Below, piece by piece: positions 1,872 through 19,994 of a stretch of DNA of 20,000 nt. Where the stretch lies: positions 60,841 to 80,840 of the forward strand of contig JACVGW010000002.1 in NCBI GenBank assembly GCA_018992565.1, in the 5' to 3' direction. The notes under the pieces were generated by a model. It saw only the letters and a list, made by a program, of their open reading frames with translations. It searched no databases and was not told the origin of the DNA. This stretch comes from Theionarchaea archaeon (lineage in GTDB: Archaea; Methanobacteriota_B; Thermococci; Methanofastidiosales; SZ-28-30). A program made the translations under genes and the position numbers. How positions within the stretch are numbered: the stretch's first letter is position 1; every line of letters begins with the position of its first letter.

Positions 1872-3188
1872 TTATACCTTTTTCAGAGCCTTCTCAAAGA
1901 TATCCAATGCGAGATCTGCCTGTTCTTCTGCAACGATTAAGGGAGGTACAAATCGGATAGAGCTCTTCCCGCAGGGCAGGAGTAGCAATCCATTCTTCCA
2001 GGATTCAAAGATGATTTTCTCCACTTCTTTCTTCGCATGTTCCTTTGTTTTCCTGTCTTTTACCAGTTCGCAGGCGATCATTAACCCTTTGCCTCGTACA
2101 TCTCCAATAAGGGAGTGGTTCTCGTACATCTCTTTCAGCCGTTTCAGCATATGGGCCCCAACCTTGGCCGCGTTGTCCACAAGTTTACTGGTGAGTAAGT
2201 CAATGGTGGCAAGGGATGCAGCACAGGACACAGGGTTTCCTCCAAATGTTGAAGCATGCGCACCAGGAGGCCACGACATAATCTCAGAAGAGGCAACACA
2301 GGCACCCAAGGGCATACCACTGGCAATCCCCTTGGCCATACATATCACATCCGGGACAACGCCCCAGTGTTCAACTGCAAACATCTTACCCGTTCTGCCA
2401 AACCCTGACTGGACTTCGTCATCCACCAGCAGAATGTTGTGCTCATCACATATCTTCTTTATCTTGCTGAAAAACTCTGGAGGAGGAACGACGTACCCGC
2501 CTTCTCCCTGGATAGGTTCAGCAAATATCGCTGCGACATCAGTTGGAGGGACAACTTTCTCCAGATAGTGCTCAATGTATGCTATGCATTCAAACCCACA
2601 GCTGCCATATTCCTGGTTGAAAGCACACCGATAGCAGTAGGCGTAGGGTACATGGGTCACGTCAGGCACAAGAGGACTGAACCGCTCTTTTTGAATAGCT
2701 TTGGACGCCGTCAATGAGAGGGCCCCCATGGTCCTTCCATGAAATGCTCCTAAGAAGGCAATCATTTTTACTCGTCGTGTGTACCATCGGGCTACCTTGA
2801 GCCCGCACTCAACAGCCTCCGCCCCTGAGTTTCCAAAGAATACTCTCTTATCAAAGTCTCCTGGAGTAATCTGTGTCAGTTTTTGAGCCAGATCTACCTG
2901 CTCTGTATAGTAGAAGTCTGTCCCTGACAGGTGGATTAATTTGTCTGCCTGCTTCTTTATAGCTTCCACGACCTTGGGATGGGAGTGGCCGGTGGCACAG
3001 ACTGCAATACCTGCTGCAAAATCATAGAAGGTGTTTCCATCTACATCCTCAATGATCATCCCTCGCCCCGCTTTGGCAACCAGAGGATATGATCGGGTAT
3101 AGCTCGTTGAGATGTACTTCTCATCCTTTTTGAGGATTTCTTCCGCCTTTGGCCCCGGAAGGGTTGTTCTAATCTGTGGCTTCTCCAT
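1872..3188 (-). CDS. Class-III PLP-dependent aminotransferase (ornithine/4-aminobutyrate omega-aminotransferase-like)
   Basis: Motifs NSGAEAVE, FHGRT, EPIQGEGG, DEVQSGFGRTG, PLP lysine in AKGIASG, STFGGNP. Start moved to ATG 3188 (MEKPQIRTTLPGPK), with GGTGA just upstream. Confidence 0.93.
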   Translation of the reverse strand: MEKPQIRTTLPGPKAEEILKKDEKYISTSYTRSYPLVAKAGRGMIIEDVDGNTFYDFAAGIAVCATGHSHPKVVEAIKKQADKLIHLSGTDFYYTEQVDLAQKLTQITPGDFDKRVFFGNSGAEAVECGLKVARWYTRRVKMIAFLGAFHGRTMGALSLTASKAIQKERFSPLVPDVTHVPYAYCYRCAFNQEYGSCGFECIAYIEHYLEKVVPPTDVAAIFAEPIQGEGGYVVPPPEFFSKIKKICDEHNILLVDDEVQSGFGRTGKMFAVEHWGVVPDVICMAKGIASGMPLGACVASSEIMSWPPGAHASTFGGNPVSCAASLATIDLLTSKLVDNAAKVGAHMLKRLKEMYENHSLIGDVRGKGLMIACELVKDRKTKEHAKKEVEKIIFESWKNGLLLLPCGKSSIRFVPPLIVAEEQADLALDIFEKALKKV

Positions 3189-4719: not shown

Positions 4720-5175
4720 TTATGGTGCCAGCCCCTCTGATGCGTACATATAAACAACCTCTGTGTAGCCGAGGGTGGTCATAGCAGGGGGGTTCAATGT
4801 CCTGACCCGGGCGATGGCCTGGTCAGGTGGAATCCCCTGGTGGATGAGGTAGCAGGAAAGCATGGCTCCCGTGCGGTCATTCCCAGCATAGCAGTGGACA
4901 ATTCCAGGTGCTGTGAGAGACATGGCCACCTCAACAAAGCGGGGGACAGCCTTCACGAATTGCTCTTTTGATTGGAGCGTCGTCAAAGCAATATCAGGGA
5001 GATACAGTGGAACGTGGTCTATAGGGGAGGCAGCAATCTCCTGAGCATTCACCTTGTCATCCAGGGATATAATTGAGCGAATTCCTGCCGCGTACAACTC
5101 AGAGAGGTTCCAGGGCTTTCGTACAGGTCCACACCGTCCTCCTAACAATGGAGTTATCCAGTAAATACGATCCAT
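4720..5175 (-). CDS. Dual-specificity/protein-tyrosine phosphatase family protein
   Basis: CX5R P-loop VHCYAGNDRTG in a 151-aa protein; 8 nt downstream of the M20 peptidase, with GGTGA RBS. Confidence 0.88.
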   Translation of the reverse strand: MDRIYWITPLLGGRCGPVRKPWNLSELYAAGIRSIISLDDKVNAQEIAASPIDHVPLYLPDIALTTLQSKEQFVKAVPRFVEVAMSLTAPGIVHCYAGNDRTGAMLSCYLIHQGIPPDQAIARVRTLNPPAMTTLGYTEVVYMYASEGLAP

Positions 5176-5183
5176 TGAATCAC

Positions 5184-6473
5184 CTACATTCTCTTGATAA
5201 TTTCTGTGATAACGTTGATACCTTCTTCATAGTCTGATAGGGAGATACTCTCATTGGGGCTGTGCGTCCGTGACTCTGCATCTCCTACACCAATGGAGAC
5301 TGTGGGAATGCCCAGGACATCAGTGAACAGCCACATGGGACCTGATCCCGACATGGTGGGATAGATGACAGGTGGGTTTTCATATACTGCTCTCATAGAC
5401 TGTTCAGTGACAGAGACAATTTCTGCAGTTACCGGGGTCTTGGCAGGCCAGAGAGGCCCCATGAGTTCTGTATCAATGTCTGAGAATCCATGCTTCTCAA
5501 GGTGTAGGGTTAGTAGCTGGAATATCTTCTGCGGGTCCTGGCGGGGAACGAGTCTGAAATCAATCTTTGCCATGGCATCTGCGGGGAGGACAGTCTTGCT
5601 CCCTTGACCAGTATAGCCGGAAAGAATGCCGCATATGTTGCAGCTTGGGCCATACAAGAGATGGTAAACTGCTTCTTCATCTGACATGTCATTGAGGAAG
5701 TGGTCGACACCCAGCATGGCTCTGGCCTTGTCGCCATCATAGGGTATGGAGTCGACTATGGCACGTTCTTCAGCAGTGGGAGGCTCTACGTCCTGGTAGA
5801 AACCTTCTATCAGGATGTGGTCCCTGGAGTCTTTCAGTGTGGTCAAGGCTCTGATAAGTCTCCATGCGGGATTTTCCACGATAACTGCAAAAGCTGAGTG
5901 AAGATCTCTTTTGCTTCCATGCGCACGGAGCTGTACGTAGCATAGCCCTTTGGCTCCCAGGCACATGGTGGGTCTCCCTGCTTCATCTTTGTATCCTGCC
6001 TCCCAGATGCACGCATCAGCTTTGAGGAGGGATTTGTGGGTTTCGACGAATTTCTGGAGAGAAGGACTGCCAATCTCTTCTTCCCCCTCTATGATGAACT
6101 TTATAGTGATAGGCAGCCTGTCAAAGGATTCCACGGCTGCCAGGCGGGCCATGATGTTTCCTTTGTTATCTGCAACACCTCTGGCATACAGCCGATTGTC
6201 TCTGACATCAGGCTCGAAGGGTGGAGTAACCCACTGATCAAGGGGATCTGGGGGCTGCACATCGTAGTGATCATAGAAGATGAGGGTTTTGTCAGATATC
6301 CCTTTTTTTTCGCCGAATACTACGGGGTGCCCCTCTGTGGGTATGATCTGGACGTGAAACCCTGCTTCTTGCAGGAATTCCGTGACTTTTTCCGCACAGT
6401 CCTGAATCGCTTGATGATGGGCTGAGACACTGGGAATCTTCAGCAGCTCTTTCAAGGCTTCAACATTGGTCAT
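5184..6473 (-). CDS. M20/M25/M40 family metallopeptidase (dipeptidase/deacylase)
   Basis: Motifs HYDVQP, RGVADNKG, EGEEEIGS, DLHS and C-terminal HSPNE. Confidence 0.93.
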   Translation of the reverse strand: MTNVEALKELLKIPSVSAHHQAIQDCAEKVTEFLQEAGFHVQIIPTEGHPVVFGEKKGISDKTLIFYDHYDVQPPDPLDQWVTPPFEPDVRDNRLYARGVADNKGNIMARLAAVESFDRLPITIKFIIEGEEEIGSPSLQKFVETHKSLLKADACIWEAGYKDEAGRPTMCLGAKGLCYVQLRAHGSKRDLHSAFAVIVENPAWRLIRALTTLKDSRDHILIEGFYQDVEPPTAEERAIVDSIPYDGDKARAMLGVDHFLNDMSDEEAVYHLLYGPSCNICGILSGYTGQGSKTVLPADAMAKIDFRLVPRQDPQKIFQLLTLHLEKHGFSDIDTELMGPLWPAKTPVTAEIVSVTEQSMRAVYENPPVIYPTMSGSGPMWLFTDVLGIPTVSIGVGDAESRTHSPNESISLSDYEEGINVITEIIKRM

Positions 6474-6757: not shown

Positions 6758-7534
6758 ATGACAGTGAACCCCAGCAGAGATAAAGTGGCTCTCATAACAG
6801 GAGCATCTAGCGGCCTTGGCGAGGCTTATGCCAGGAAATTAGCCTCACAAGGGTATGACCTTGTCCTCGTAGCAAGAAGAGAGGAGCGGTTATCTGCTTT
6901 GAGTAGTGAACTCCAGGCTGACTATCCCATCACGGCGGAGGTTCTTGTTGCAGATCTAACCAGAGAGCGTGACATAAAAAGGGTAGAAACCACAATCTCT
7001 GATCTAGATCACATAGATATACTCATAAATAATGCAGGCTTTGGAACGACAGGAACATTTGCAGAGGTGGATCTCAAAGGGCAGCTTGGGATGATAACTC
7101 TCTATGTTGTGGCACCTACACGCCTCATCCGCGCCGCTCTGCATAAAATGGAAAAGGGAGGATCAATCATCAATGTTGCCTCTCTCGGCGCTTTTATCAA
7201 AGTGCCAGGGAATGTCACCTACTGCGCAGCGAAGTCCTACCTTGTAGTCTTCTCGGAGACTCTGCAGATAGAGCTTAAGGAGAAAGGCATCCGTGTTCAA
7301 GCATTATGTCCGGGATTTGCCAGGACGGAGTTCCACGGAAAAATGGGAGGATTCGACAGTTCAGTTGTTCCGAAGGTTCTATGGATGAATCCTGAGGATG
7401 TTGTCAAAGAATCATTGAAAGCCTTGGAGAAAGGAAAGGTGGTGTGCATTCCAGGTCTCAGGAATCGTATCGTTTTCATTCTGGCTCGTATTGGTGTTAG
7501 TCCATTTCTATTGAAGTTGTATCACCTTCAGTAG
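6758..7534 (+). CDS. Short-chain dehydrogenase/reductase (SDR)
   Basis: TGASSGLG Rossmann motif, NNAGFG, catalytic YCAAK, LCPG. The true start may be GTG 6764 given the spacing of GGAGG at 6752-6756. Confidence 0.93.
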   Translation: MTVNPSRDKVALITGASSGLGEAYARKLASQGYDLVLVARREERLSALSSELQADYPITAEVLVADLTRERDIKRVETTISDLDHIDILINNAGFGTTGTFAEVDLKGQLGMITLYVVAPTRLIRAALHKMEKGGSIINVASLGAFIKVPGNVTYCAAKSYLVVFSETLQIELKEKGIRVQALCPGFARTEFHGKMGGFDSSVVPKVLWMNPEDVVKESLKALEKGKVVCIPGLRNRIVFILARIGVSPFLLKLYHLQ

Positions 7535-7928: not shown

Positions 7929-9125
7929 TTATCTCGTTGATATCACGCTGAGAAGTCTCTCCACACCCAGAGCAATCCCTTCAACCTCAATGCCGCCTTC
8001 CCCTTTGGCACTGTCACCCACCAGGTATAACCCTTCGACAGGGGTTACCTGATCAAGGTCCTGACCAGACGCAGCATGATTCACAGGATTACTACTCCGG
8101 TAAATCTGAATATTCAAAACTTCATATCTCCCACCAAACAACTTCTCAAGCTCAGAAAGTCCCTTTTCCTTCTCTTTTCCAAAATTACCTGAAGATGCTC
8201 TCTGGTGAGCCATGACCAGATGATATCCCTCAGGAGCAAGGGAAGGATCGATATTCGTTACCTGGTTAACCCCTCCAATGTGGTCCAGCGCTGGAGTAAA
8301 CATCACCCCAGAATGGCCTATCAGTGATTCTTTTGAAGCCAGTGAGTACTTGATACCTTCAGAAGGGGTCATCTCATCAATCTGCGCCTGATATTCTCTG
8401 GGGAACTTGACCAGTCTCGAGGTTGCTTTTGCGCCGATGTCAGACACCACTACAGAGTCTCTATATTCTTTTCCGTCCTCATCTGTGACCCCGCACACGC
8501 TGTCATCTGTTATAATCTCAGTCACTCTCTTATGCACAATATCGTTCCCTCGTCTCCGAATGGCCTCCTCCAGTGCTCTTATTACACCAGAACACCCCCC
8601 CAGGGGAATACCGGGTCCTCTGTATTTGAACATAGACCTGACAATGGAAAACATTTCACTGCATGGAACCTGTGAGGGCTCCAAGCTCAAAGACCAGATA
8701 CAAAATGACCTAAATCCTCTTAGAATTATATCATTTTTCGTCCTTTGTTCAAGAAATTCCTTGAATGACTTCTTGCTTCCTTTCCTGTACCTCATTTCCA
8801 TCAGTGTAGTATACAACCACGTTCTCTCAGCCAGCTTCAACATATCCAGTACCTGTCCAAACCGCATCTCTCTATCATAGAAAAACGTTGCCAGAGGGTT
8901 TGAATCTACAATAGTGCAGGTAGCTCCTGCTCTTTTCAAGAGCCGAGCAAGAGGCCCCTTGGAACCATGTGGTACCATGTGCAGGGCACCCGTGGTCAGC
9001 TGAAATCCTTTGTAAGGAATATTACGGAACCGGCCGCCAAGCTGAGACGTCTTCTCGAAAAGCGTCACTTTAGGACAAAGGGCTGCTACCAACAACCCTC
9101 CAATCCCACCTCCAATGACAATCAT
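7929..9125 (-). CDS. FAD-dependent oxidoreductase, phytoene desaturase (CrtI)-like archaeal family
   Basis: N-terminal GGGIGG dinucleotide fold, EK...LGGR, DPSLAPEG, and C-terminal GLYLVGD. Confidence 0.8.
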   Translation of the reverse strand: MIVIGGGIGGLLVAALCPKVTLFEKTSQLGGRFRNIPYKGFQLTTGALHMVPHGSKGPLARLLKRAGATCTIVDSNPLATFFYDREMRFGQVLDMLKLAERTWLYTTLMEMRYRKGSKKSFKEFLEQRTKNDIILRGFRSFCIWSLSLEPSQVPCSEMFSIVRSMFKYRGPGIPLGGCSGVIRALEEAIRRRGNDIVHKRVTEIITDDSVCGVTDEDGKEYRDSVVVSDIGAKATSRLVKFPREYQAQIDEMTPSEGIKYSLASKESLIGHSGVMFTPALDHIGGVNQVTNIDPSLAPEGYHLVMAHQRASSGNFGKEKEKGLSELEKLFGGRYEVLNIQIYRSSNPVNHAASGQDLDQVTPVEGLYLVGDSAKGEGGIEVEGIALGVERLLSVISTR

Positions 9126-9559
9126 GTACCATTAAGAACTGGCAGGAATAAAAAGGTTCCTACCATCCAGTCACGACATATAGAATAATCTTTCGAACCT
9201 AAATAGCGTGGTTGTTAATCCATATCTTCTGTATCATTGAAAAAGCTCCATATGAAGAGTTTTTTCTCCCCTGCGTCATTAGTCTGTCTGACAAATGCGG
9301 AATTTTGATTCAACATGCCCACACACATGCGGTGGGTTTTCCTTTCCGGATATGAGAATTGTCAACTTATTTTTAATAAATTGAGCAACTAATCCAAAAA
9401 AGAAGAAATTTTAACTTAAAAGACAGAAATAGTCCATAATTTATATTTTTTTGCATAAAAAGACCAGAACATTTTTAAAGAAGAAAATGACTATATGAAC
9501 CTGTGATGCAGTGTTGTCAGAGAGAAATTCTATACCGTTTGCAGTAAGGAGGCGAAAAA

Positions 9560-10522
9560 ATGAGAGCAACTCCTGATGAAAAAGTGATGCAGTATAGAAT
9601 CATCTACGAAAAATTCACTGAGTGCCCCAGAGCAAAGGTTCGGGACGTGGCATCTCTCCTGAGAGTCAACCGTCATTGTGCCAGTATCAAGATAAAGGAA
9701 GCTCTCAACCTCGGCTATGTTCTCGTACCGCAGTTGAGAAAACGTTCGTATTCCAACATGAGGGAGTACATGTACTTTGTGAATTGTGTACATCCCTTCG
9801 ATTTCTACAAGAAGTACAGCAAGGATCTCAATGTGGTTTATCATGCGCGAATGGTGGGGTTTGCCAGTATGTGGATAGTCTCCAGCAGGAGAATACATGT
9901 TGAAGGAAAGACGGTGATAGAAGGAGTCCGCTCTGACTACTACGTGGCACATGCTCCCAGCCATTCCTGGCAGAAAGCAGTTGATATCATGTGGAAGAAA
10001 GTGCGGGAGTTTGATCCTGACAGGCATTCGTCCAGGAAGTTCATTGTCAACCACCTGACTGAGTCTATGCATTGGGATAGTCAGGATGAGATACTGTACC
10101 AGGAATTCAAATACGATCTGAGGAGAAACCTCAGCCCCATTATGAAAAAGTATGGTATTTCCGCCCGGAAGATTTATTCGTTCTTTGAGAAGATGCGTCG
10201 CTGCTGTACTGTATTTACGCGATTCTTCCCGGAGACTATTGTCTCTTACGATCCTTATCTGTTCATATTCGAGACTGAGTATGAGGACTTCGTCATTGAC
10301 CTGTTCTCTGAACTGCCCACCAGCCCCTTTTTCTTCAAGGTTGGGGATAGACTGCTCATGTACACGAATGTGGACAAATTCTTCTCACGACGAGTGGGAC
10401 TCGACATGTCGGATGTCAGTCAGCTCCACATTCCTCTCTTGGTGGATGCGCTGATAAAAAAAGGGATAGTGAAAAGAGAAGATCATGCTATTGCTGAGTA
10501 TTCAAATGCAAAGGGGTTTTAG
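9560..10522 (+). CDS. Hypothetical protein with two Lrp/AsnC-like HTH modules; putative transcriptional regulator
   Basis: 320-aa ORF with RBS AAGGAGG just upstream. Segment IIYEKFTECPRAKVRDVASLLRVNRHCASIKIKEALNLGYV and segment WDSQDEILYQEFKYDLRRNLSPIMKKYGISARKIYSFFEKM both align by eye with the Lrp N-terminus at 3315. Confidence 0.7.
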   Translation: MRATPDEKVMQYRIIYEKFTECPRAKVRDVASLLRVNRHCASIKIKEALNLGYVLVPQLRKRSYSNMREYMYFVNCVHPFDFYKKYSKDLNVVYHARMVGFASMWIVSSRRIHVEGKTVIEGVRSDYYVAHAPSHSWQKAVDIMWKKVREFDPDRHSSRKFIVNHLTESMHWDSQDEILYQEFKYDLRRNLSPIMKKYGISARKIYSFFEKMRRCCTVFTRFFPETIVSYDPYLFIFETEYEDFVIDLFSELPTSPFFFKVGDRLLMYTNVDKFFSRRVGLDMSDVSQLHIPLLVDALIKKGIVKREDHAIAEYSNAKGF

Positions 10523-10722
10523 CCTGGAGCCCCTCCTCCCCCACCCTGATGACCTCCATTGATTGTAGGGTTTCCATTCTGGGAGGCGTCTGGATTGATT
10601 GAGCAGTACTCATCTGGAAACTCTGTTTGATCTGTAACCTGGACGTATACCTCTCCTATTGCAGAAGAGGTTCCCACCAACAGGAGTCCAGCAACCAACA
10701 AGAACATTACTATAGGTTTCAT
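10519..10722 (-). CDS. Small exported peptide (67 aa) with N-terminal signal peptide and Gly-rich C-terminus
   Basis: Internal ATG 10722 of the 126-aa track ORF, preceded by RBS AGAGGTGA (10727-10734) and TTTTTATT (~10757-10764). Sequence MKPIVMFLLVAGLLLVGTSSA/IGEVYVQVTDQTEFPDEYCSINPDASQNGNPTINGGHQGGGGGAPG. Confidence 0.8.
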   Translation of the reverse strand: MKPIVMFLLVAGLLLVGTSSAIGEVYVQVTDQTEFPDEYCSINPDASQNGNPTINGGHQGGGGGAPG

Positions 10723-10940
10723 TCTCTCACCTCTTATGGGCGTATAATCCATTCTCAATAAAAAGATTTCGCTATACGGAAAGAATGGCATGCTGGAATG
10801 TTCCATAACGTGACCTGGGCCCTGTTCAAGACATGAGTGGTCTCCAGTGAAGAGGAGGGTTCTCGTAGTTGTGATACTTCCTGTGCAGGGGTCTACCAAC
10901 CTGTATCAATCTTTAAATATGTCAATGCTTCATTATTCCC

Positions 10941-12191
10941 ATGAGTAAAACCATGGCTGAGAAAATATTGGGAAGAGCAAGTAACCAGGAGGTTGCTTCA
11001 GGTGACATCATAGATGGTACAGTTGATCTGGCCATGTCTCATGAGAATACTGCTGCAATCTCTGGTAAGTTCAAGTCTATCGGTGTTCCCAGGGTGTGGG
11101 ATCCCGCACGGATTGTGGTCCCCATTGATCATTGCGCCCCTGCAGCAAATGAGGATTATGCCAAGAATCACAAGGTTATTAGGGAATTTGTCAGAGAACA
11201 GAACATCACAAACTTCTATGATATAAAAGCGGGAGTGTGCCATCAGGTTCTCCCTGAAAAGGGACACATTAAGCCGGGCATGTTGGTGGTGGGCTCAGAT
11301 TCTCATACACCCACCTATGGGGCATTGGCTGCATTTGCCACAGGAATCGGGAGGACAGAGATGGCTGCTGTCTATGCTACAGGAAAGATTTGGTTGAGAG
11401 TCCCTGAAAGCTTTAAGATAATCGTGGAAGGAAAGCTTCCTGATATGGTGTCAGCAAAGGATGTGATTCTTCACATTATTGGGGATCTGCGAGCCGATGG
11501 GGCGAATTACAAAGCCGTGGAATTCTGCGGGGATACGGTAGATCACATGACTGTGGGTGAGCGAATGGTCCTATGCAACATGTCTGCTGAGATGGGCGCC
11601 AAGGCGGGAATGGTTGCCTTTGATGATACTACCAGGATGTATCTGGACGAGAGAACAGACAGAGTGTATACTGTGCTGAATCCAGATGCAGATGCAGTCT
11701 ATGAGAAGGTTGTCCATGTTGCTGTCCATGATCTGGAGCCTCAGGTGGCCTGTCCCCATACGGTGGACAATGTCAAGCCTCTTTCCCAGGTGGAGGGAGT
11801 TCCCATCAACCAGGCGGTCCTGGGCACCTGTACCAATGGCAGAGTGGAGGATCTGGCTGTGGCAGCATCCCTTCTCAAGGGAAAGAAGATTGCTGACACG
11901 GTGCGGTTAATTGTCATCCCGGCTTCCACAGAAGTCTATGCAGAAGCAGTACAGAATGGGATAATTCTGGATTTAGTGAAAGCAGGTGCAGTCATCTGCA
12001 ACCCCAATTGTGGTCCCTGTCTGGGTGCTCACCAGGGTGCCCTGGCTCCTGGGGAAGTATGTATCTCCTCATCCAACCGCAACTTCAGAGGGAGGATGGG
12101 CTGTAAGGATGCTGAAATCTATCTTGCTTCTCCCGCGACTGTGGCAGCTTCATCTCTAACTGGCAGAATTACTGATCCCCGAGGTGTATAA
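10941..12191 (+). CDS. leuC: 3-isopropylmalate dehydratase/homoaconitase large subunit (LeuC/HacA family)
   Basis: MSKTMAEKIL, DH, CHQV, DSHT, [4Fe-4S] cysteines in GTCTNGR and CGPCLG, SNRNF.GRMG, YLASP. Confidence 0.95.
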   Translation: MSKTMAEKILGRASNQEVASGDIIDGTVDLAMSHENTAAISGKFKSIGVPRVWDPARIVVPIDHCAPAANEDYAKNHKVIREFVREQNITNFYDIKAGVCHQVLPEKGHIKPGMLVVGSDSHTPTYGALAAFATGIGRTEMAAVYATGKIWLRVPESFKIIVEGKLPDMVSAKDVILHIIGDLRADGANYKAVEFCGDTVDHMTVGERMVLCNMSAEMGAKAGMVAFDDTTRMYLDERTDRVYTVLNPDADAVYEKVVHVAVHDLEPQVACPHTVDNVKPLSQVEGVPINQAVLGTCTNGRVEDLAVAASLLKGKKIADTVRLIVIPASTEVYAEAVQNGIILDLVKAGAVICNPNCGPCLGAHQGALAPGEVCISSSNRNFRGRMGCKDAEIYLASPATVAASSLTGRITDPRGV

Positions 12192-12692
12192 ATGAAAATG
12201 AAAGGCAGAGTGTTCAAGTATGGAGATGACGTTAATACTGATGTCATTTTTCCTGGAAAGTACACGTACACGATATCAGATCCCAAAGAAATGGCAAAGC
12301 ATGCTCTGGAGGATTTGGATCCCGCATTTATTCAGAAGGTGAAAAAGGGAGATATCCTGGTGGCGGGGAAGTATTTTGGGTGCGGCTCCTCGCGTGAACA
12401 GGCAGTGACCTGTTTGAAGGAGGCTGGCATCTCAGTGGTCATCGCAGAATCATTTGCTCGTATCTACTACCGGAACTGCATCAATTCAGGTCTGCCCCCC
12501 TTGATACTGGAAGATACCTCTCACATCAATGCAGAAGACGAACTAGAGGTGGATGTAGAAACAGGAACTGTCACAGATGTGACTACAGGAGCGCAATACA
12601 CTGTCACTCCCCTGCCCCCCTTTATCATGCAGATCATACAGGATGGCGGTCTAATTCCGCACCTCAAGAAGGAGATCTCTCATGGACGTTGA
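12192..12692 (+). CDS. leuD: 3-isopropylmalate dehydratase/homoaconitase small subunit (LeuD/HacB family)
   Basis: GDDVNTDVIFPGKY, FGCGSSREQA, SFARIYYRNCIN.G, GGL; directly abuts the large subunit. Confidence 0.93.
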   Translation: MKMKGRVFKYGDDVNTDVIFPGKYTYTISDPKEMAKHALEDLDPAFIQKVKKGDILVAGKYFGCGSSREQAVTCLKEAGISVVIAESFARIYYRNCINSGLPPLILEDTSHINAEDELEVDVETGTVTDVTTGAQYTVTPLPPFIMQIIQDGGLIPHLKKEISHGR

Positions 12693-14327: not shown

Positions 14328-16142
14328 CTACAAAGAGAAAAGGTGGAGGGTTCCGCTGGAATCCAGCACCAGGAGGTACTCTTCTGAGTGAGTAGCTGCA
14401 AGTGAGACTTCATCAGGGAAGATATCCAGCTCACGTTGTGCAACAATATACCATTGTAGAATACCAGTTTCTGCACTTAGGCAGTGGATATACCCATCGT
14501 TTGCTAAAACATAAATATTCTCGTTATATTGATAGAAAGAGGTAATTTCAGTCCCTCTCACTTCATGAACCCACAGCTCTGCACCTGTTTCTGCATCGAG
14601 GGCCTGGATTACTCCGCCTTCTCTGACGAGGAACACTTTTTTCTCAGTGAGGATTGTCCTGGAGATGGGTGTATTTTCAGAGTTGTACTCCCACTTTTTC
14701 AGGCCATTTATGTGTAACATGACTACAGACTGATATTCTGAATCAGTGTGCATCATCAGCGCGATATTGTCTCCAAGAATATTTATGGAGTCCACAGGGT
14801 ACTGAGGCCAGAAAAGGTCAGTTTCTGTCATAGTCTCCAGCGTAATGCTGGTGAGTGTCCCCTCCTCATCAAAGAAATAGAAGACACCTTCAGAGTATGT
14901 GGGATGCTGGATTGAAGGGAGAGGGCCACTCCACAACGGTTCTCCTGTGCCTATATCGAGGATGACATAGTGAGGTGCAGACTGTTGATCTAGCTCAGCA
15001 AAAAGTACCGCATCGTCATATATGGCCTCATTCCAGGTATCATTGGACACTTCCCAGAGCACATTGCCGTGTTCTCTTTCCAGGCAGACAATCCCTCCAG
15101 TGAGGGCTATTACCGTATTGTCAATAAGACTCACTGCAATGTAGTCAGTGACAGATGGTATCTTATACGTCCAACGTATGCTCCCTGTTTCAGTGTCTAT
15201 GCTGTAGATATGGGAATCAGGAGCCCCCACATACAGGGTGTCATCAGAGACTGCAATCTTTTGCTCCAGCGAGGAGGGATAAGAGTGCTGTACAATCTCA
15301 AAAGGAATTGTGTACAACTGGGTTCTTGACTGAGCATCAATGCATACAATCTTGTCAGCATATGGAAGGAATATCTTTTGGTTGTGATAAACGGGGCTGC
15401 ACATAGGAACCTCCGGGAGGGCTAACGACAACAGAAGATGGGTCTGGCCCAGGACTTCCTCTGGGGGACAAATATCAGTAGTTGAGGGAAAATCAAGACT
15501 GATTCCCTTTTCCTGGGCGGCTGGAGGAACATGAGCAGGATAACATCCCCAGGTTGCTATTTTCTGGTAGGATTCCCATTGGTTATCAAGTTTTATGAGA
15601 ATTTTGAACAGTGCACTGGGGATCTTCCCGCTGTACTGGACGTAATTAGAGCCTTCATACGTGATATTCCAGGGAATGAAGCAGTAATAGCTTGATTCGG
15701 ATTCTGCCTGTATAGTTTTCCCATTGGAAAGTGTTATTTCAATGGTGAAGTGAGGGCTGTAGTCGAGGCGTGTGTAGCCCCTATAGGTTGTCTGGTAACT
15801 AACCTGGTAGAGGTCTGTAAAGCTTTCTGCAACCTCTCCTATCAGTTCTGGGGTTACGTGTTCTCCAGTGCTGGCAAAGTACTCACTATTGATTCTCTGG
15901 ATCCTGTAGAAGTGGTAGGCCAGGATAGAATCTGCGGTCTCGCTGTTGGGATCTGTATTACGTGAGCCATTGAAGGCCGTTACAGCAGTATAGGTAATGT
16001 CAATAGTTGTTATGGACTGAACAGGGGAGTATATTTCAGGAGCGTCAAAATCGGGGGGAATGTGCCACTGGACAGTCATGATGCCAGCTACAACAGCTAC
16101 CATCAGTAATAGAGAAATACTCTTTTGAAGAGGAGATGTCAC
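14328..16142 (-). CDS. Membrane-anchored/exported PQQ-like (BamB-type) beta-propeller repeat protein
   Basis: N-terminal hydrophobic segment. Repeated propeller motifs IYSIDTETGSIRW, LEREHGNVLW, LDIGTGEPLW, ALDAETGAELW and LSAETGILQW. Acidic composition. Confidence 0.85.
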   Translation of the reverse strand: MTSPLQKSISLLLMVAVVAGIMTVQWHIPPDFDAPEIYSPVQSITTIDITYTAVTAFNGSRNTDPNSETADSILAYHFYRIQRINSEYFASTGEHVTPELIGEVAESFTDLYQVSYQTTYRGYTRLDYSPHFTIEITLSNGKTIQAESESSYYCFIPWNITYEGSNYVQYSGKIPSALFKILIKLDNQWESYQKIATWGCYPAHVPPAAQEKGISLDFPSTTDICPPEEVLGQTHLLLSLALPEVPMCSPVYHNQKIFLPYADKIVCIDAQSRTQLYTIPFEIVQHSYPSSLEQKIAVSDDTLYVGAPDSHIYSIDTETGSIRWTYKIPSVTDYIAVSLIDNTVIALTGGIVCLEREHGNVLWEVSNDTWNEAIYDDAVLFAELDQQSAPHYVILDIGTGEPLWSGPLPSIQHPTYSEGVFYFFDEEGTLTSITLETMTETDLFWPQYPVDSINILGDNIALMMHTDSEYQSVVMLHINGLKKWEYNSENTPISRTILTEKKVFLVREGGVIQALDAETGAELWVHEVRGTEITSFYQYNENIYVLANDGYIHCLSAETGILQWYIVAQRELDIFPDEVSLAATHSEEYLLVLDSSGTLHLFSL

Positions 16143-16425
16143 AGGTGACTCTAGGAATACCCCTTTTTAAGAATTCCTACACTGGGAGTTGCATTGAAGA
16201 GATCCAGCAGGAATCATGCAGCGTCATGGCAATTCTCCTATGCATCATTTCATATCCAACTGCGATCTCTCTGCTTCTTCATCTTTCTCAAGGTACTTGA
16301 GAGTTGTAGTCCCATCGAGAATCACTCTCATATAAAGCTCAGAAGTCTTGAGCAGCGCAATATTGGCAGTTACTGCATATCCAATTTCCTTCATAAGGCG
16401 ATGTCCTATATACATGGCCCCTCTC

Positions 16426-16440
16426 AAAAGAAAAAAAAGA
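16426..16440 (-). terminator. Oligo-T tract, possible archaeal terminator of the transglutaminase-like gene
   Basis: TCTTTTTTTTCTTTT on the minus strand about 70 nt after the stop at 16508. Confidence 0.35.
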
Positions 16441-16507
16441 GTGATAGAGATTACATGTCAGCAGGGAGAAGCCGCATTGGAGCCACAGTGCCTTCTGGTG
16501 AACCAAC

Positions 16508-17875
16508 TCAGGGTCGACATGACTTTTGTCTGAAGTGTTCCCATATAGCCAGAACCAGCAACGCCACGAGGAGCGCAACAATCAGCAGACCTCGAAATGG
16601 GATGGACGAACTGGTGTACTCATTCTCTGCCTGGTTCATTACCTCGATATACTCATCAAGGTTAGTGCACAGAACAGCTTTTTTCTGAGCTGCAAGGGCG
16701 CGAGGGGTTTCTTTTCCTGTTGTTATGTCTTCCAGATAGTGATTCCAAACTTGCTGGGTGAGAGCGAAGGCTTCTTCCATGTGGTCTATGTTGTCAAACT
16801 CACACACTGGTCCTCCTCCGTGATCGCAATCCCACTGCGGATCAATCAATCCATGCCCGGATATTTCGGGGCCACTGAGACTTTCGGGCACACTCATCCA
16901 GGGGACACCGCGCCCTGACCAGAAGGATTTGTCAAATGACTCATTTTCATCCTCAGGAGATACCACGGCTGCCACTACATAGTCATATGGCCTGTCGGAG
17001 ACACCTTCACTGCTGAGTGTTACCCATCCGTGGCCTGACACGTAGAACTGAACTATGTAGTGAGTCTGCAAGACAGGGGCCAATGTTGGATAGACTGCCA
17101 AAATACGTGCAGGTATACCATTCGTACGGAATAATGCGGCTCCAAGGTTAGCATAGCTGGTACAGTACCCTCCTTCATGCAGAGCTTCTACTGCGTCAGT
17201 ACTCTGAGGATCACCAAATTCAATTTTGTTGAGGAATTCTGCTATTCCATTGCAAATTCTCACGACATCGTTTCCACTCCCTCGCAGTCTCTTGGCGGTT
17301 TCCTGGATTTCGGGGTGATCCGCCTGAACAGAAGCTGTAGATTCGAGCCATACCATGACATCCTGGGGTAAATCCTCACTTGCAGCAACTTCAATTTTCT
17401 CAGATAGTATGTCCCCATAGTCACGATCTCTCATCAGAACGAATCCATCCCACTTCACATCCACAGCGTCACCCTTGTTCAAGTGGTGAAAGGTCACCTC
17501 ACAGATCCAGTTGAATTCATCTCTTTTCCTGGTAACCACAGTTTTTACAGCATCTTCTGGATCAAACCGAAGTTCAAAGTAGAGGGGAACCTGATTCTCA
17601 AATTCCAGAGGGATAGGAAATGCTATTTGTGGCTCTTCCACATCTTCTTCGGCCACGATTCGAAGCCGGAACACTGCATAGGCAATACCCGGGTCAAGCA
17701 TGCGCTGAATAGGCGCAGGGAATGACTTCTCAGTTCCATAGTCTGGAAGTTCTACTTCCTCATCAGGGATAGTGTCTTTGACGACACTTTCGTATACCAT
17801 TGACGCGCCTGTAACCACGACCATCACTATCAACAAAAGGTATGCTTTTCTTGTTTTTGATATCATGCTTTTCAT
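16508..17875 (-). CDS. Transglutaminase-like domain protein with N-terminal signal/TM and C-terminal TM anchor
   Basis: Motifs VQADHPEI, DAVEAL..GGYCTSYANLGAALFRTNGIPAR and THYIVQFYV.G.GWV. Hydrophobic segments at both ends and a basic C-tail. Confidence 0.85.
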   Translation of the reverse strand: MKSMISKTRKAYLLLIVMVVVTGASMVYESVVKDTIPDEEVELPDYGTEKSFPAPIQRMLDPGIAYAVFRLRIVAEEDVEEPQIAFPIPLEFENQVPLYFELRFDPEDAVKTVVTRKRDEFNWICEVTFHHLNKGDAVDVKWDGFVLMRDRDYGDILSEKIEVAASEDLPQDVMVWLESTASVQADHPEIQETAKRLRGSGNDVVRICNGIAEFLNKIEFGDPQSTDAVEALHEGGYCTSYANLGAALFRTNGIPARILAVYPTLAPVLQTHYIVQFYVSGHGWVTLSSEGVSDRPYDYVVAAVVSPEDENESFDKSFWSGRGVPWMSVPESLSGPEISGHGLIDPQWDCDHGGGPVCEFDNIDHMEEAFALTQQVWNHYLEDITTGKETPRALAAQKKAVLCTNLDEYIEVMNQAENEYTSSSIPFRGLLIVALLVALLVLAIWEHFRQKSCRP

Positions 17876-18167: not shown

Positions 18168-19994
18168 ATGGACAGAAAAATACATTTTCCAGTCAATAAA
18201 GACTATATTCTGGAATTTGACAGTAATAATAGAAAAATAGACTTGTTGGAGTGGCAAGAGTTCGAAAATGTGAGACTTATCAACAGTGAGGAAGAAGAAG
18301 TTGCTGAAATCCCTTTTGCAAGATCAGACGATATCAGTGTGGTTGTAATACCCTCTCATTTCTGTAACCTCTCGTGCAAATATTGCCATGATGGAACCAT
18401 GACATCTAGCATTCAGAAGCTGGAGAAGAATATGATTGATTCCATTTTTGATTTCCTAGAACAATTTGAAGAAAATAAGGTGGTAAAATGGACGCTCATG
18501 GGGGGAGAACCATTTCATCATGTAGTGGAGGAATCAGTACTCTGCCTGATGGAAAGAATAAAAGAAAGAGGGGAGCCAATTCACGCTATTTGTAATGGAA
18601 CATTGCTGAATGAAGTGTATGCGAACTATCTGGATTCTGTTCAGATAGCGCTGGATGGAACAAGAGAATTCCATGACTATAGACGATTGTATCCTGATGG
18701 GAAAGGATCATTTCAGGATACTGTCAATGGTATAGAGACCGCACTAGCCTGTGATACCAGTGTCAGTGTGAGAGTACATGTAGATGCCCATAACATTAAT
18801 AACGTGCCAGAGCTCCTACATTACCTGTCGTCGAAAGGATATTTATCCAAAAAGCATTTTGAAGTGTATATGTACCCCCTGAGCGAATCAGGAAGTTTTG
18901 ATTATCAGTATTTTACTGATGAGCTCTCTCTGGTGAAAAGGGCAGTGTATTTAATGAGAGAATACCCACATCTGAGAAAAACAAAATGGAGGTTTCAAGG
19001 AATAGAGTTGTTCGAGAATATACGTGAGGGGAAGGAATTTCCCACAGCAGATTTTCATTTCTGCTGTGCACATTCAAATCAAATCGTTTTTGATCCCCAG
19101 GGCGATGTGTATGTTTGCTGGGTTGGCCTGGAAAAGGAACACTTCAAGATCGGCAAGTATTGCCCTGAAAAAAGACTATATAAGGGTTTATTCAAAAGAT
19201 GGCGGGACAGGAACATGATAAATCTTGAGGAGTGTTGTTCTTGTTATTTCCAGCCTGTTTGCGGAGGAGACTGTTCTCACAAAGCATACAAAGAAACGAA
19301 GAAATCTGGAGATCCAAGATGTGTACCTGTCTTGGAGATACTAGAAGAATGGGTACCGCTCCTTCTTGATAACTTCGAAATGGTGGAAAGAACCTCTTTT
19401 GAGAGGTGGGATTTTGAGAAATGGGCAGATAATTATGATGCTTCTGTCAAATCAAAAGGCTGGCTACATTCAGATTACGAAAAAATTCTAAGAGAAGTCT
19501 CCAACAGAGCTACTGGATCATTCTTGGTGGATATTGGTGCTGGAACAGGTAACATCCTCCAATACTTGAGGGAAGGAATACGATATGTGGGGATAGAACC
19601 TTCCCCCAATATGAGAAGAGTCTTCAGAGAAAAACACAGAGACAAAGAAGTATATTCTGGACATTTCCTCTATGTACCACTCATGAGTAGAATTGCAGAC
19701 ACTGTTCTCAGCTCATATGCCTTTCATCACGTCAGGGATGAGGATAAAGAAAGGTCAATAGAGGAAATGCTTCGATTGCTCAAGAATGGTGGGAAGCTGG
19801 TTATAGGAGACATAATGTTTCAATCCGAAGACGAGAAAGCCAGAATTGGAGAAGAAGACAATATTCTGGAAGATGTAAATGATGAATATTTCGCGTCTAT
19901 AGATCACATGAAGAACATTCTGGATACGCTGCAGATGAAGTCAGTATTTACACAGATAAATCGGTACATATGGATCATGGAGGTCTTTACTTGA
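18168..19994 (+). CDS. Radical SAM/SPASM domain protein fused to a C-terminal class I SAM-dependent methyltransferase
   Basis: CNLSCKYC (CxxxCxxC), GGEP, QIALDG..E.HD.RR. SPASM cysteines CC...GDVYVC...C-CS-C-YFQPV-C-GGD-C...C. From about nt 19400 an MTase domain: FEKWADNYD, VDIGAGTG, GIEPS..M, SSYAFHH, LK.GGKLVIGD. Confidence 0.93.
   Translation: MDRKIHFPVNKDYILEFDSNNRKIDLLEWQEFENVRLINSEEEEVAEIPFARSDDISVVVIPSHFCNLSCKYCHDGTMTSSIQKLEKNMIDSIFDFLEQFEENKVVKWTLMGGEPFHHVVEESVLCLMERIKERGEPIHAICNGTLLNEVYANYLDSVQIALDGTREFHDYRRLYPDGKGSFQDTVNGIETALACDTSVSVRVHVDAHNINNVPELLHYLSSKGYLSKKHFEVYMYPLSESGSFDYQYFTDELSLVKRAVYLMREYPHLRKTKWRFQGIELFENIREGKEFPTADFHFCCAHSNQIVFDPQGDVYVCWVGLEKEHFKIGKYCPEKRLYKGLFKRWRDRNMINLEECCSCYFQPVCGGDCSHKAYKETKKSGDPRCVPVLEILEEWVPLLLDNFEMVERTSFERWDFEKWADNYDASVKSKGWLHSDYEKILREVSNRATGSFLVDIGAGTGNILQYLREGIRYVGIEPSPNMRRVFREKHRDKEVYSGHFLYVPLMSRIADTVLSSYAFHHVRDEDKERSIEEMLRLLKNGGKLVIGDIMFQSEDEKARIGEEDNILEDVNDEYFASIDHMKNILDTLQMKSVFTQINRYIWIMEVFT

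Follow-up and report, generated by a model that had tools for sequence, protein, structure and literature searches.

In the Group III Rgg/SHP systems, as described in PMC13361665, the shp gene is convergent with rgg and overlaps its 3' end. The stretch of DNA analyzed here (hereafter the window), which spans 20,000 nt of the Theionarchaea archaeon contig JACVGW010000002.1 (positions 60,841 to 80,840), harbors a gene pair with an identical convergent, overlapping layout, in which a predicted helix-turn-helix (HTH) regulator gene likewise meets a gene for a small, putatively exported peptide. The pair encodes a 320-aa protein of predicted double Lrp/AsnC architecture and a 67-aa small protein ending in a Gly-rich tail, and the likeliest reading, which we regard as an even proposition, is that the two define a conserved, lineage-restricted two-gene cassette, composed of a dedicated double Lrp/AsnC regulator and an exported small protein. 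The receptors of RRNPP and Rgg/SHP systems are tetratricopeptide repeat (TPR) proteins, whereas the fold predicted here is Lrp/AsnC-like, and no match to a TPR family was obtained with Pfam for the window protein or for 32 members of its family. Furthermore, the peptides are 62-68 aa long, with a putative Sec-type N-terminus, and their conserved part is a C-terminal Gly tail that shows no variation with the receptor; no permease or processing gene lies nearby, and the host is an archaeon.

A second point of comparison is the siroheme decarboxylase NirDL (4ch7/4czc), which also combines two winged HTH (wHTH) and ferredoxin-like units in one chain of ~320 aa. According to PMC4835899, 4CZC consists of two ferredoxin-like domains, AsnC-related and fused, that together form one barrel. 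The protein reported here differs from NirDL in sharing just 8-9% identity with it, in lacking NCBIfam or Pfam matches to such families and in having no heme or heme d1 neighbours. Classical Lrp/AsnC regulators, such as Pyrococcus LrpA/FL11 (PH1519) and E. coli AsnC, present the same succession of an N-terminal wHTH and an alpha-beta effector domain, but they are ~150 aa long and their effector barrel arises from two separate chains, whereas here two units are fused. Archaeal and actinobacterial HTH_AsnC-type proteins of ~320-415 aa, which are unstudied, provide full-length structural matches, with template modelling (TM) scores of 0.64-0.79 in the Atlas. The 320-aa family is, in addition, paired with a small exported peptide gene; no report of a similar pairing was found for NirDL and the other fused double proteins, whose gene contexts lay outside the comparison.

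In archaeosortase/PGF-CTERM sorting signals, a transmembrane helix and basic residues come after the motif. The peptides resemble them in carrying a Gly/Pro motif near the end of an exported protein, but here the protein stops 0-3 residues after A-P-G. Double-glycine leaders of bacteriocins are N-terminal and are accompanied by a peptidase-ABC exporter, in contrast with the C-terminal Gly motif found here and the lack of such an exporter in the window. No description of the module, of the peptide family or of archaeal peptide signalling via an Lrp-type protein was found in the literature searched, with subscription journals outside its scope. The regulator has a known architecture in divergent form, no name exists for the peptide family, and the pairing of the two varies the familiar theme of a regulator plus a small exported protein.

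The genes of the pair and their signals occupy the following positions in the window:

9560 to 10522, plus strand: open reading frame (ORF) of 320 aa for a single-chain, double Lrp/AsnC-like protein, according to the ORF call and the predicted fold
10519 to 10722, minus strand: small-protein ORF of 67 aa, MKPIVMFLLV...NGGHQGGGGGAPG, with its ATG at 10722 and its end at 10519
10519 to 10522: four bases, TTAG, read from the sequence as common to both stop codons
9546 to 9552, plus strand: Shine-Dalgarno sequence AAGGAGG of the 320-aa gene, 7 nt ahead of its ATG
10727 to 10733, minus strand: Shine-Dalgarno sequence GAGGTGA of the peptide gene, 4 nt ahead of its ATG
10757 to 10765, minus strand: A/T-rich box CTTTTTATT, which may serve as an archaeal TATA box, with the peptide ATG ~35-43 nt downstream
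10456 to 10462, minus strand: T7 run, a candidate oligo-T terminator of the peptide transcript, 57-63 nt past the peptide stop and within the 3' end of the regulator coding region

The stop codon of the regulator gene (TAG) takes up 10520-10522, and that of the peptide gene (TAA) is the reverse complement of 10519-10521. An earlier sequence-only reading of this DNA had described two convergent ORFs of these sizes sharing TTAG at 10519-10522, each with its own strong ribosome-binding site, and the sequence bears this out, with AAGGAGG and GAGGTGA at the expected places. In the ORF listing, a TTG at 10899 opens the minus-strand frame of the peptide, giving 126 aa, but the start that yields 67 aa is favoured, given that lengths of 62-68 aa and an opening at the equivalent M-K/R are shared by 10 of the 11 homologue clusters listed.

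Genomic context was read in the window and in four loci obtained from a genome scan with the regulator (L001-L004), which together contain seven genes of the 320-aa family. A convergent peptide gene lies beside three of these seven. In L001, the peptide gene (4957..5154) shares a 4-nt overlap (CTAA) with the regulator stop, and in L002 (4616..4828) it is located 2 nt past it. The pair is hence convergent and abutting at the three DNA loci that present a peptide gene, and the genes that flank it differ completely among them: a flavoprotein gene and aconitase-family subunit genes in the window, KaiC-like and NAC genes upstream and an Ssb-like OB-fold gene downstream in L001, and radical SAM (S-adenosylmethionine) and methyltransferase genes upstream and a second paralogue downstream in L002. 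The sequence-only reading had asked whether paralogues repeatedly have a convergent peptide gene at their side, and the pairing does recur in other genomes, with different flanks.

The same association was observed in peptide clusters recovered by homology. Among the 11 clusters listed, five have context, and for all five a family member is adjacent or lies on a contig of the same size. Two of these peptides are those of L001 (P0273) and L002 (P0272), which stand beside a regulator homologue in the DNA; a third, P0278 (WBA22_08560), adjoins the regulator P0002 (WBA22_08565) according to their locus tags; and the peptides P0121 and P0280 share their longest-contig values (22543 and 26081) with the regulators P0001 and P0004, respectively. 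No peptide gene was found apart from a family member in these five of 11 clusters. In a 126-row tree of the regulators, with peptide status assigned for nine rows, the peptide-linked regulators are spread over at least four separately supported clades, and the regulator clades with the pair are 38-57% identical. The regulator and peptide genes therefore behave as a retained unit, yet just a minority of the paralogues have the peptide with them.

At L002 (3615-6121), two paralogues stand on either side of a single peptide gene; their identity is 85% and becomes complete over a long central stretch. The first converges on the peptide gene, and the second, which is the one family gene among the seven that is divergent beside a peptide gene, begins ~277 bp upstream of its start. 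Such an arrangement suggests that a tandem duplication or a gene conversion took place recently and left the peptide gene uncopied. The second paralogue is in turn met convergently by an 81-aa ORF (6199-6444, minus strand) with about three hydrophobic stretches by eye and no Pfam match; placed as the Gly-tailed peptide is at the first paralogue, it may encode a different small membrane partner or be there by chance.

The signals that precede the peptide gene recur together with the pair. An AGGTG Shine-Dalgarno core occupies the same aligned place in the peptide genes of the window, L001 and L002, and A/T-rich boxes in matching alignment columns (CTTATAAATA in L001 and TTTTTAAAG in L002) place such a box ~35-40 nt before the peptide ATG at all three loci. 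Beyond the peptide stop, L001 presents a T6 run at a distance of ~8 nt. Read-through of the regulator TAG was considered and ruled out, given that the L001 regulator ends in TAA and that of L002 in TGA.

Homologues of the peptide were recovered with a profile of the three peptides encoded in the window, L001 and L002; a search with the window peptide alone returned a 93%-identical relative and nothing else. The 11 clusters among the matches listed are 62-95 aa long, with 10 of them at 62-68 aa, and those that are named derive from Theionarchaea or Methanofastidiosia, in agreement with the mention in the sequence-only reading of similar Gly-tailed small proteins in Theionarchaea genomes. An acidic character and a high content of Gly and Pro are common to all 11 peptides, each of which carries K/R within its first residues and then an uncharged hydrophobic stretch of 15-21 residues (MKKILVLLLLVG..GTS..A.EA) that in most of them has an A-x-A-like end (SSA, AEA or VEA). 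The spacer that follows is poorly conserved, acidic and proline-rich, with a net charge of -4 to -8 past the hydrophobic stretch across the 11 clusters, and leads to a near-invariant end, typically P-C-GGGGGNGGGAPG or, in words, (C)G5-N-G3-A-P-G. The peptides terminate 0-3 residues past A-P-G, with three residues in one case, and in 10 of the 11 the part beyond the hydrophobic stretch contains one Cys or more, usually right before the Gly run.

The window peptide conforms to this pattern and displays the elements that had been read from its sequence: a basic n-region (MK), a 20-residue uncharged hydrophobic core ending in SSA-IG, an acidic remainder with a net charge of -6 and a Gly-rich tail. 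Its N-terminus is compatible with a Sec signal cleaved at an A-x-A-type site and is also long enough for an uncleaved membrane anchor, and AlphaFold2 (AF2) predicts a helix at residues 2-30, with low confidence elsewhere. Searches of NCBIfam, including its sorting-domain families, yielded no match for the 11 peptides, and the best score among Atlas look-alikes of the peptide was 0.76, below a meaningful level.

The third codon positions of the Gly run differ among the three DNA loci, which argues for selection on the protein rather than on a nucleic-acid element, and the idea that the run is conserved as a DNA or RNA element downstream of the regulator was discarded on these grounds. Although one ORF of 67 aa would carry no weight by itself, the recurrence of the same type of ORF beside 320-aa homologues, together with this variation, is more than chance would produce, and the conserved pattern of its sequence indicates that the peptide gene is a real, conserved gene for a predicted exported small protein.

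Comparison with close relatives revealed that the two genes evolve at different rates. Between the window and a near-identical relative, 2 of 320 residues have changed in the regulator and 4 of 67 in the peptide (Fisher p 0.009), all four of the latter in the spacer, and with respect to a Methanofastidiosia relative, identity amounts to 83% for the regulator and 56% for the peptide. Judging from these alignments, the spacer is fast-evolving, and the signal region and the tail are not. The peptide of the near-identical relative (P0121) is annotated as 95 aa long from an upstream ATG, a start that is probably miscalled, because the other 10 clusters are 62-68 aa long and begin at M-K/R directly after the Shine-Dalgarno sequence. 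Relative to the window peptide, its spacer has gained a second Cys and an N-G-T sequon.

The architecture of the 320-aa protein was addressed through structure prediction. An AF2 model built on a 32-row family alignment reached a predicted local distance difference test (pLDDT) value of 91 and a predicted TM-score (pTM) of 0.89, and displayed three helices followed by beta-alpha-beta-beta elements, in a pattern that is present twice in the chain. The AF2 secondary structure delimits four predicted domains:

residues ~5-61: first wHTH, with three helices and a wing
residues ~70-124: first ferredoxin-like domain
residues ~174-215: second wHTH
residues ~216-317: second ferredoxin-like domain

Foldseek searches against the PDB returned as top matches the fused NirDL structures 4ch7 and 4czc (E 1.2e-5 and 2.1e-5, TM 0.42-0.49), aligned over the whole chain (339-353 columns) at 8-9% identity. 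The next matches were single Lrp/AsnC regulators (probability 0.93-1.0, 114-129 columns), including the PH1519-DNA complex, AsnC and a halophilic Lrp. In the Atlas, archaeal clusters of 320-415 aa, with HTH_AsnC-type in more than 90% of their members, matched over the full length at TM 0.71-0.79, and an actinobacterial cluster labelled Lrp/AsnC matched at TM 0.64; AsnC_trans_reg is present in 98% of the members of one matched cluster at that same TM value. The model and these structural matches support a tandem (double) Lrp/AsnC-type architecture in one chain. The tandem Lrp-HTH protein proposed by the sequence-only reading was hence recovered with AF2, Foldseek, the Atlas and HTH_24 matches.

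The 320-aa protein belongs to a large family, with at least 223 clusters at E<=1e-3 in a word-indexed search, nearly all of them 310-340 aa long and the named ones all from Theionarchaea or Methanofastidiosia. An exhaustive search of representatives yielded 166 clusters at 50% identity, and the Atlas cluster of the window protein contains 1210 members and is archaeal throughout (Methanobacteriota). The family is a large lineage-specific expansion of archaeal paralogues. A 3.9-kb contig (L004) contains the 3' end of one member (3-269) and a second member (1825-2871) of 348 aa that is 22% identical to the window protein, and this very divergent member implies that the family has deep branches within one genome. 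The regulator had no tblastn match in plasmid or phage collections, and the idea of a mobile element was therefore rejected.

Within the family, HTH_24 was matched by 16 of the 32 aligned members (E<=0.01), and HTH_AsnC-type, TrmB and MarR_2 by four members each. Conservation is lowest in the region of the first recognition helix (residues 31-40, 0.46) and peaks at 0.84-0.91 in residues 231-260 (YDPYLF.FET.YEDF.I.LFS.LPTS), which form the core of the second ferredoxin-like domain, a pattern that would be expected of paralogous regulators with differing DNA targets and a common effector or interface. In the alignment, 22 columns are invariant, and many of these hold polar or aromatic residues, among them R24, R60, S125, D126, W137, W172, E177, R188, C216, D231, Y233, T239, Y241 and D243.

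These data outline a possible mode of action for the cassette. The first gene would encode a cytoplasmic DNA-binding regulator with two wHTH and two ferredoxin-like effector domains, the latter packing, by analogy with NirDL, as one intramolecular barrel. The second would encode a small exported protein, in which a signal or anchor helix at the N-terminus is followed by an acidic, disordered spacer and by a C-terminal tail outside the cell, and which may act at the cell surface or in the medium. The adjacent paralogue would be the dedicated regulator of the peptide gene. Given that the genes abut without room for a terminator, each transcript would have to run into the other gene, and convergent transcription could couple both genes negatively, so that the cell would mainly express one or the other. 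An 18-nt direct repeat (9495-9512 and 9576-9593, 83% identical, common GTGATGCAGT, 81 nt apart) stands on either side of the regulator start codon and could be an autoregulatory binding site or a chance occurrence.

Several results weigh against this interpretation. Context covers just five of the 11 listed peptide clusters, and 11 listed peptide clusters stand against at least 223 regulator clusters, from which it follows that most paralogues must work without a peptide. In the context read, the expectation that homologues would have a small ORF beside them holds for the three genes with a convergent peptide gene and for the one divergent beside it, and fails for the remaining three, which comprise the L003 gene, convergent on a TrkH gene, and both L004 genes. 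For local regulator-target pairs, a convergent layout is less usual than a divergent or co-directional one, and scans for repeats and promoters, the latter with a sigma-70 model that is inapplicable to archaea, produced weak repeats and no operator or motif tying the regulator to the peptide promoter. The assignment of the regulator is subject to similar reservations. The window protein falls under every Pfam threshold, and neither protein of the pair had a significant match in Pfam, NCBIfam, PADLOC or PHROGs. None of the 32 family members matches AsnC_trans_reg (PF01037), and a profile search against PDB sequences returned weak HTH matches (Lrs14-like, E 0.0065; LrpA, E 0.12). The comparison of the N-terminal and C-terminal halves with hhalign was not significant (E 0.43), and internal duplication was accordingly discarded as a finding from sequence; the halves being without detectable sequence similarity, the tandem Lrp assignment rests on predicted structure, for which the best match is an enzyme rather than a regulator.

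Part of this evidence would also suit a pair without functional coupling, in which the peptide is an independent surface or secreted protein (e.g. metal- or thiol-related, adhesive or antimicrobial) that stays by chance beside one branch of regulators controlling other genes. The prevalence of family members without a peptide and the lack of a common regulatory motif are in line with this possibility, as are the Cys kept in 10 of 11 peptides and their acidic, Gly/Pro-rich make-up, which could serve an extracellular role free of any regulator. Nonetheless, adjacency, convergence and abutting ends (a 4-nt overlap or a 2-nt gap) persist at three loci with entirely different flanks and over regulator clades that are 38-57% identical, and the clusters with context yielded no peptide gene without a family member nearby, so that we place the absence of coupling on the unlikely side. 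Less of the evidence suits an enzyme or binding protein that has kept the Lrp/AsnC shape and uses the barrel cavity for a substrate, like NirDL or AhbAB. NirDL is the best PDB match, the lack of AsnC_trans_reg extends to the whole alignment, and 22 invariant columns in 32 sequences are unusually many for paralogous regulators. However, identity to NirDL is low, no gene of the tetrapyrrole or heme pathways is adjacent in the window or present in the flanking ORFs scanned at L001-L003, half of the members match DNA-binding wHTH models, and the abundance of paralogues in each genome and the variability of their first HTH suit regulators better, which together make an enzymatic function very improbable.

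The sequence-only reading had gone further, in proposing a peptide-receptor system analogous to RRNPP on an Lrp-type scaffold, in which the peptide tail was the mature signal. Under this proposal, which can be likened to an RRNPP or Rgg/SHP system, the exported and perhaps processed peptide, or a fragment of it such as the Gly tail, would re-enter the cytoplasm, bind the barrel of the regulator and alter its DNA binding. The gene layout of Group III Rgg/SHP, as given in PMC13361665, matches that of the pair. In addition, the two genes stay together while their flanks change, the peptide evolves faster than the regulator, and the peptide tail and the second ferredoxin-like domain are the most conserved parts, as a common ligand and its pocket would be; with both so highly conserved, one common signal might address many paralogous receptors. 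The predicted fold, however, is not that of the TPR receptors, and the variable middle of the peptide may be a mere unconstrained linker. The tail does not co-vary with the regulator, being nearly invariant across regulators that are 38-83% identical, and hence does not provide receptor-specific signals as RRNPP peptides do. There is no oligopeptide permease or processing protease gene in the window and no permease gene in the flanks examined, which contain one signal peptidase gene, 1.7 kb away in L001. The family genes without a peptide and the excess of regulator over peptide clusters also argue against a signal. The ligands of Lrp/AsnC effector domains are amino acids and other small molecules, and none of these domains is known to bind a peptide. 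When the regulator, with its 32-row alignment, was co-folded with residues 22-67 of the peptide as the mature form, with an 11-row alignment, both runs scored 0.27, under the mark of 0.32 and without controls, a result that counts neither for nor against binding. Nothing in these data shows the regulator sensing the peptide; peptide signalling is possible but unsupported, and we deem it unlikely. Its most ambitious form would be the first archaeal module for peptide cell-to-cell signalling on a fused double Lrp/AsnC receptor, with the invariant (C)G5NG3APG tail as a shared ligand, read in the barrel of one or many paralogues whose variable first HTH targets different promoters, and with the overlapping layout adding an antisense switch, and this we consider quite improbable.

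The pair had also been noted to sit between unrelated metabolic genes, and its immediate neighbours in the window agree with that description:

7929 to 9125, minus strand: flavin amine-oxidase-like gene, upstream neighbour
10941 to 12692, plus strand: aconitase-family large and small subunit genes, downstream neighbours

Farther from the pair, the window contains a gene (4720-5175, minus strand) for a 151-aa protein matching dual-specificity phosphatase models named after polymorphic toxin systems (Tc-R-P, 2e-10; PTP-SAK, 9e-9), located between genes for an M20 peptidase and a DUF92 membrane protein. A segment on the same strand (14328-17875) encodes a 604-aa PQQ (pyrroloquinoline quinone)-like beta-propeller protein and a 455-aa transglutaminase-core protein, both of which are probably exported or surface-located. 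Rfam returned no match anywhere in the window. The only radical SAM gene in the window (18168-19994, plus strand) lies 7.6 kb from the pair and encodes a 608-aa protein with a radical SAM domain (60-218) fused to a class I methyltransferase (454-546). Radical SAM and methyltransferase genes are also found near the pair in L002 (116..1024 and 2156..2932), and a system akin to those of ribosomally synthesized and post-translationally modified peptides was considered; the proteins of the window and L002 are unrelated (E 1.7 and 10), and their nearness to the pair is therefore taken as a coincidence. The L001 signal peptidase gene (Peptidase_S26/S24; 6869-7420, plus strand) lies ~1.7 kb from the peptide gene and adjoins a ribosomal L10e gene. 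It is probably a housekeeping gene, and it has no counterpart near the pair in the window or in L002.

The Theionarchaea and Methanofastidiosia are uncultured sediment archaea without a genetic system, in which regulation is essentially unstudied. The finding brings together three parts for these lineages: a family of predicted exported proteins with a conserved tail, an expansion of putative double Lrp/AsnC proteins, and a tight link between the two that outlasts the loss of all synteny. Already in its conservative reading, as a dedicated regulator and an exported small protein, the cassette offers a concrete regulator-target pair for testing. Should the regulator in fact prove to sense the peptide, the Archaea would join the organisms that communicate by peptides, and an Lrp effector domain would be reading a peptide.

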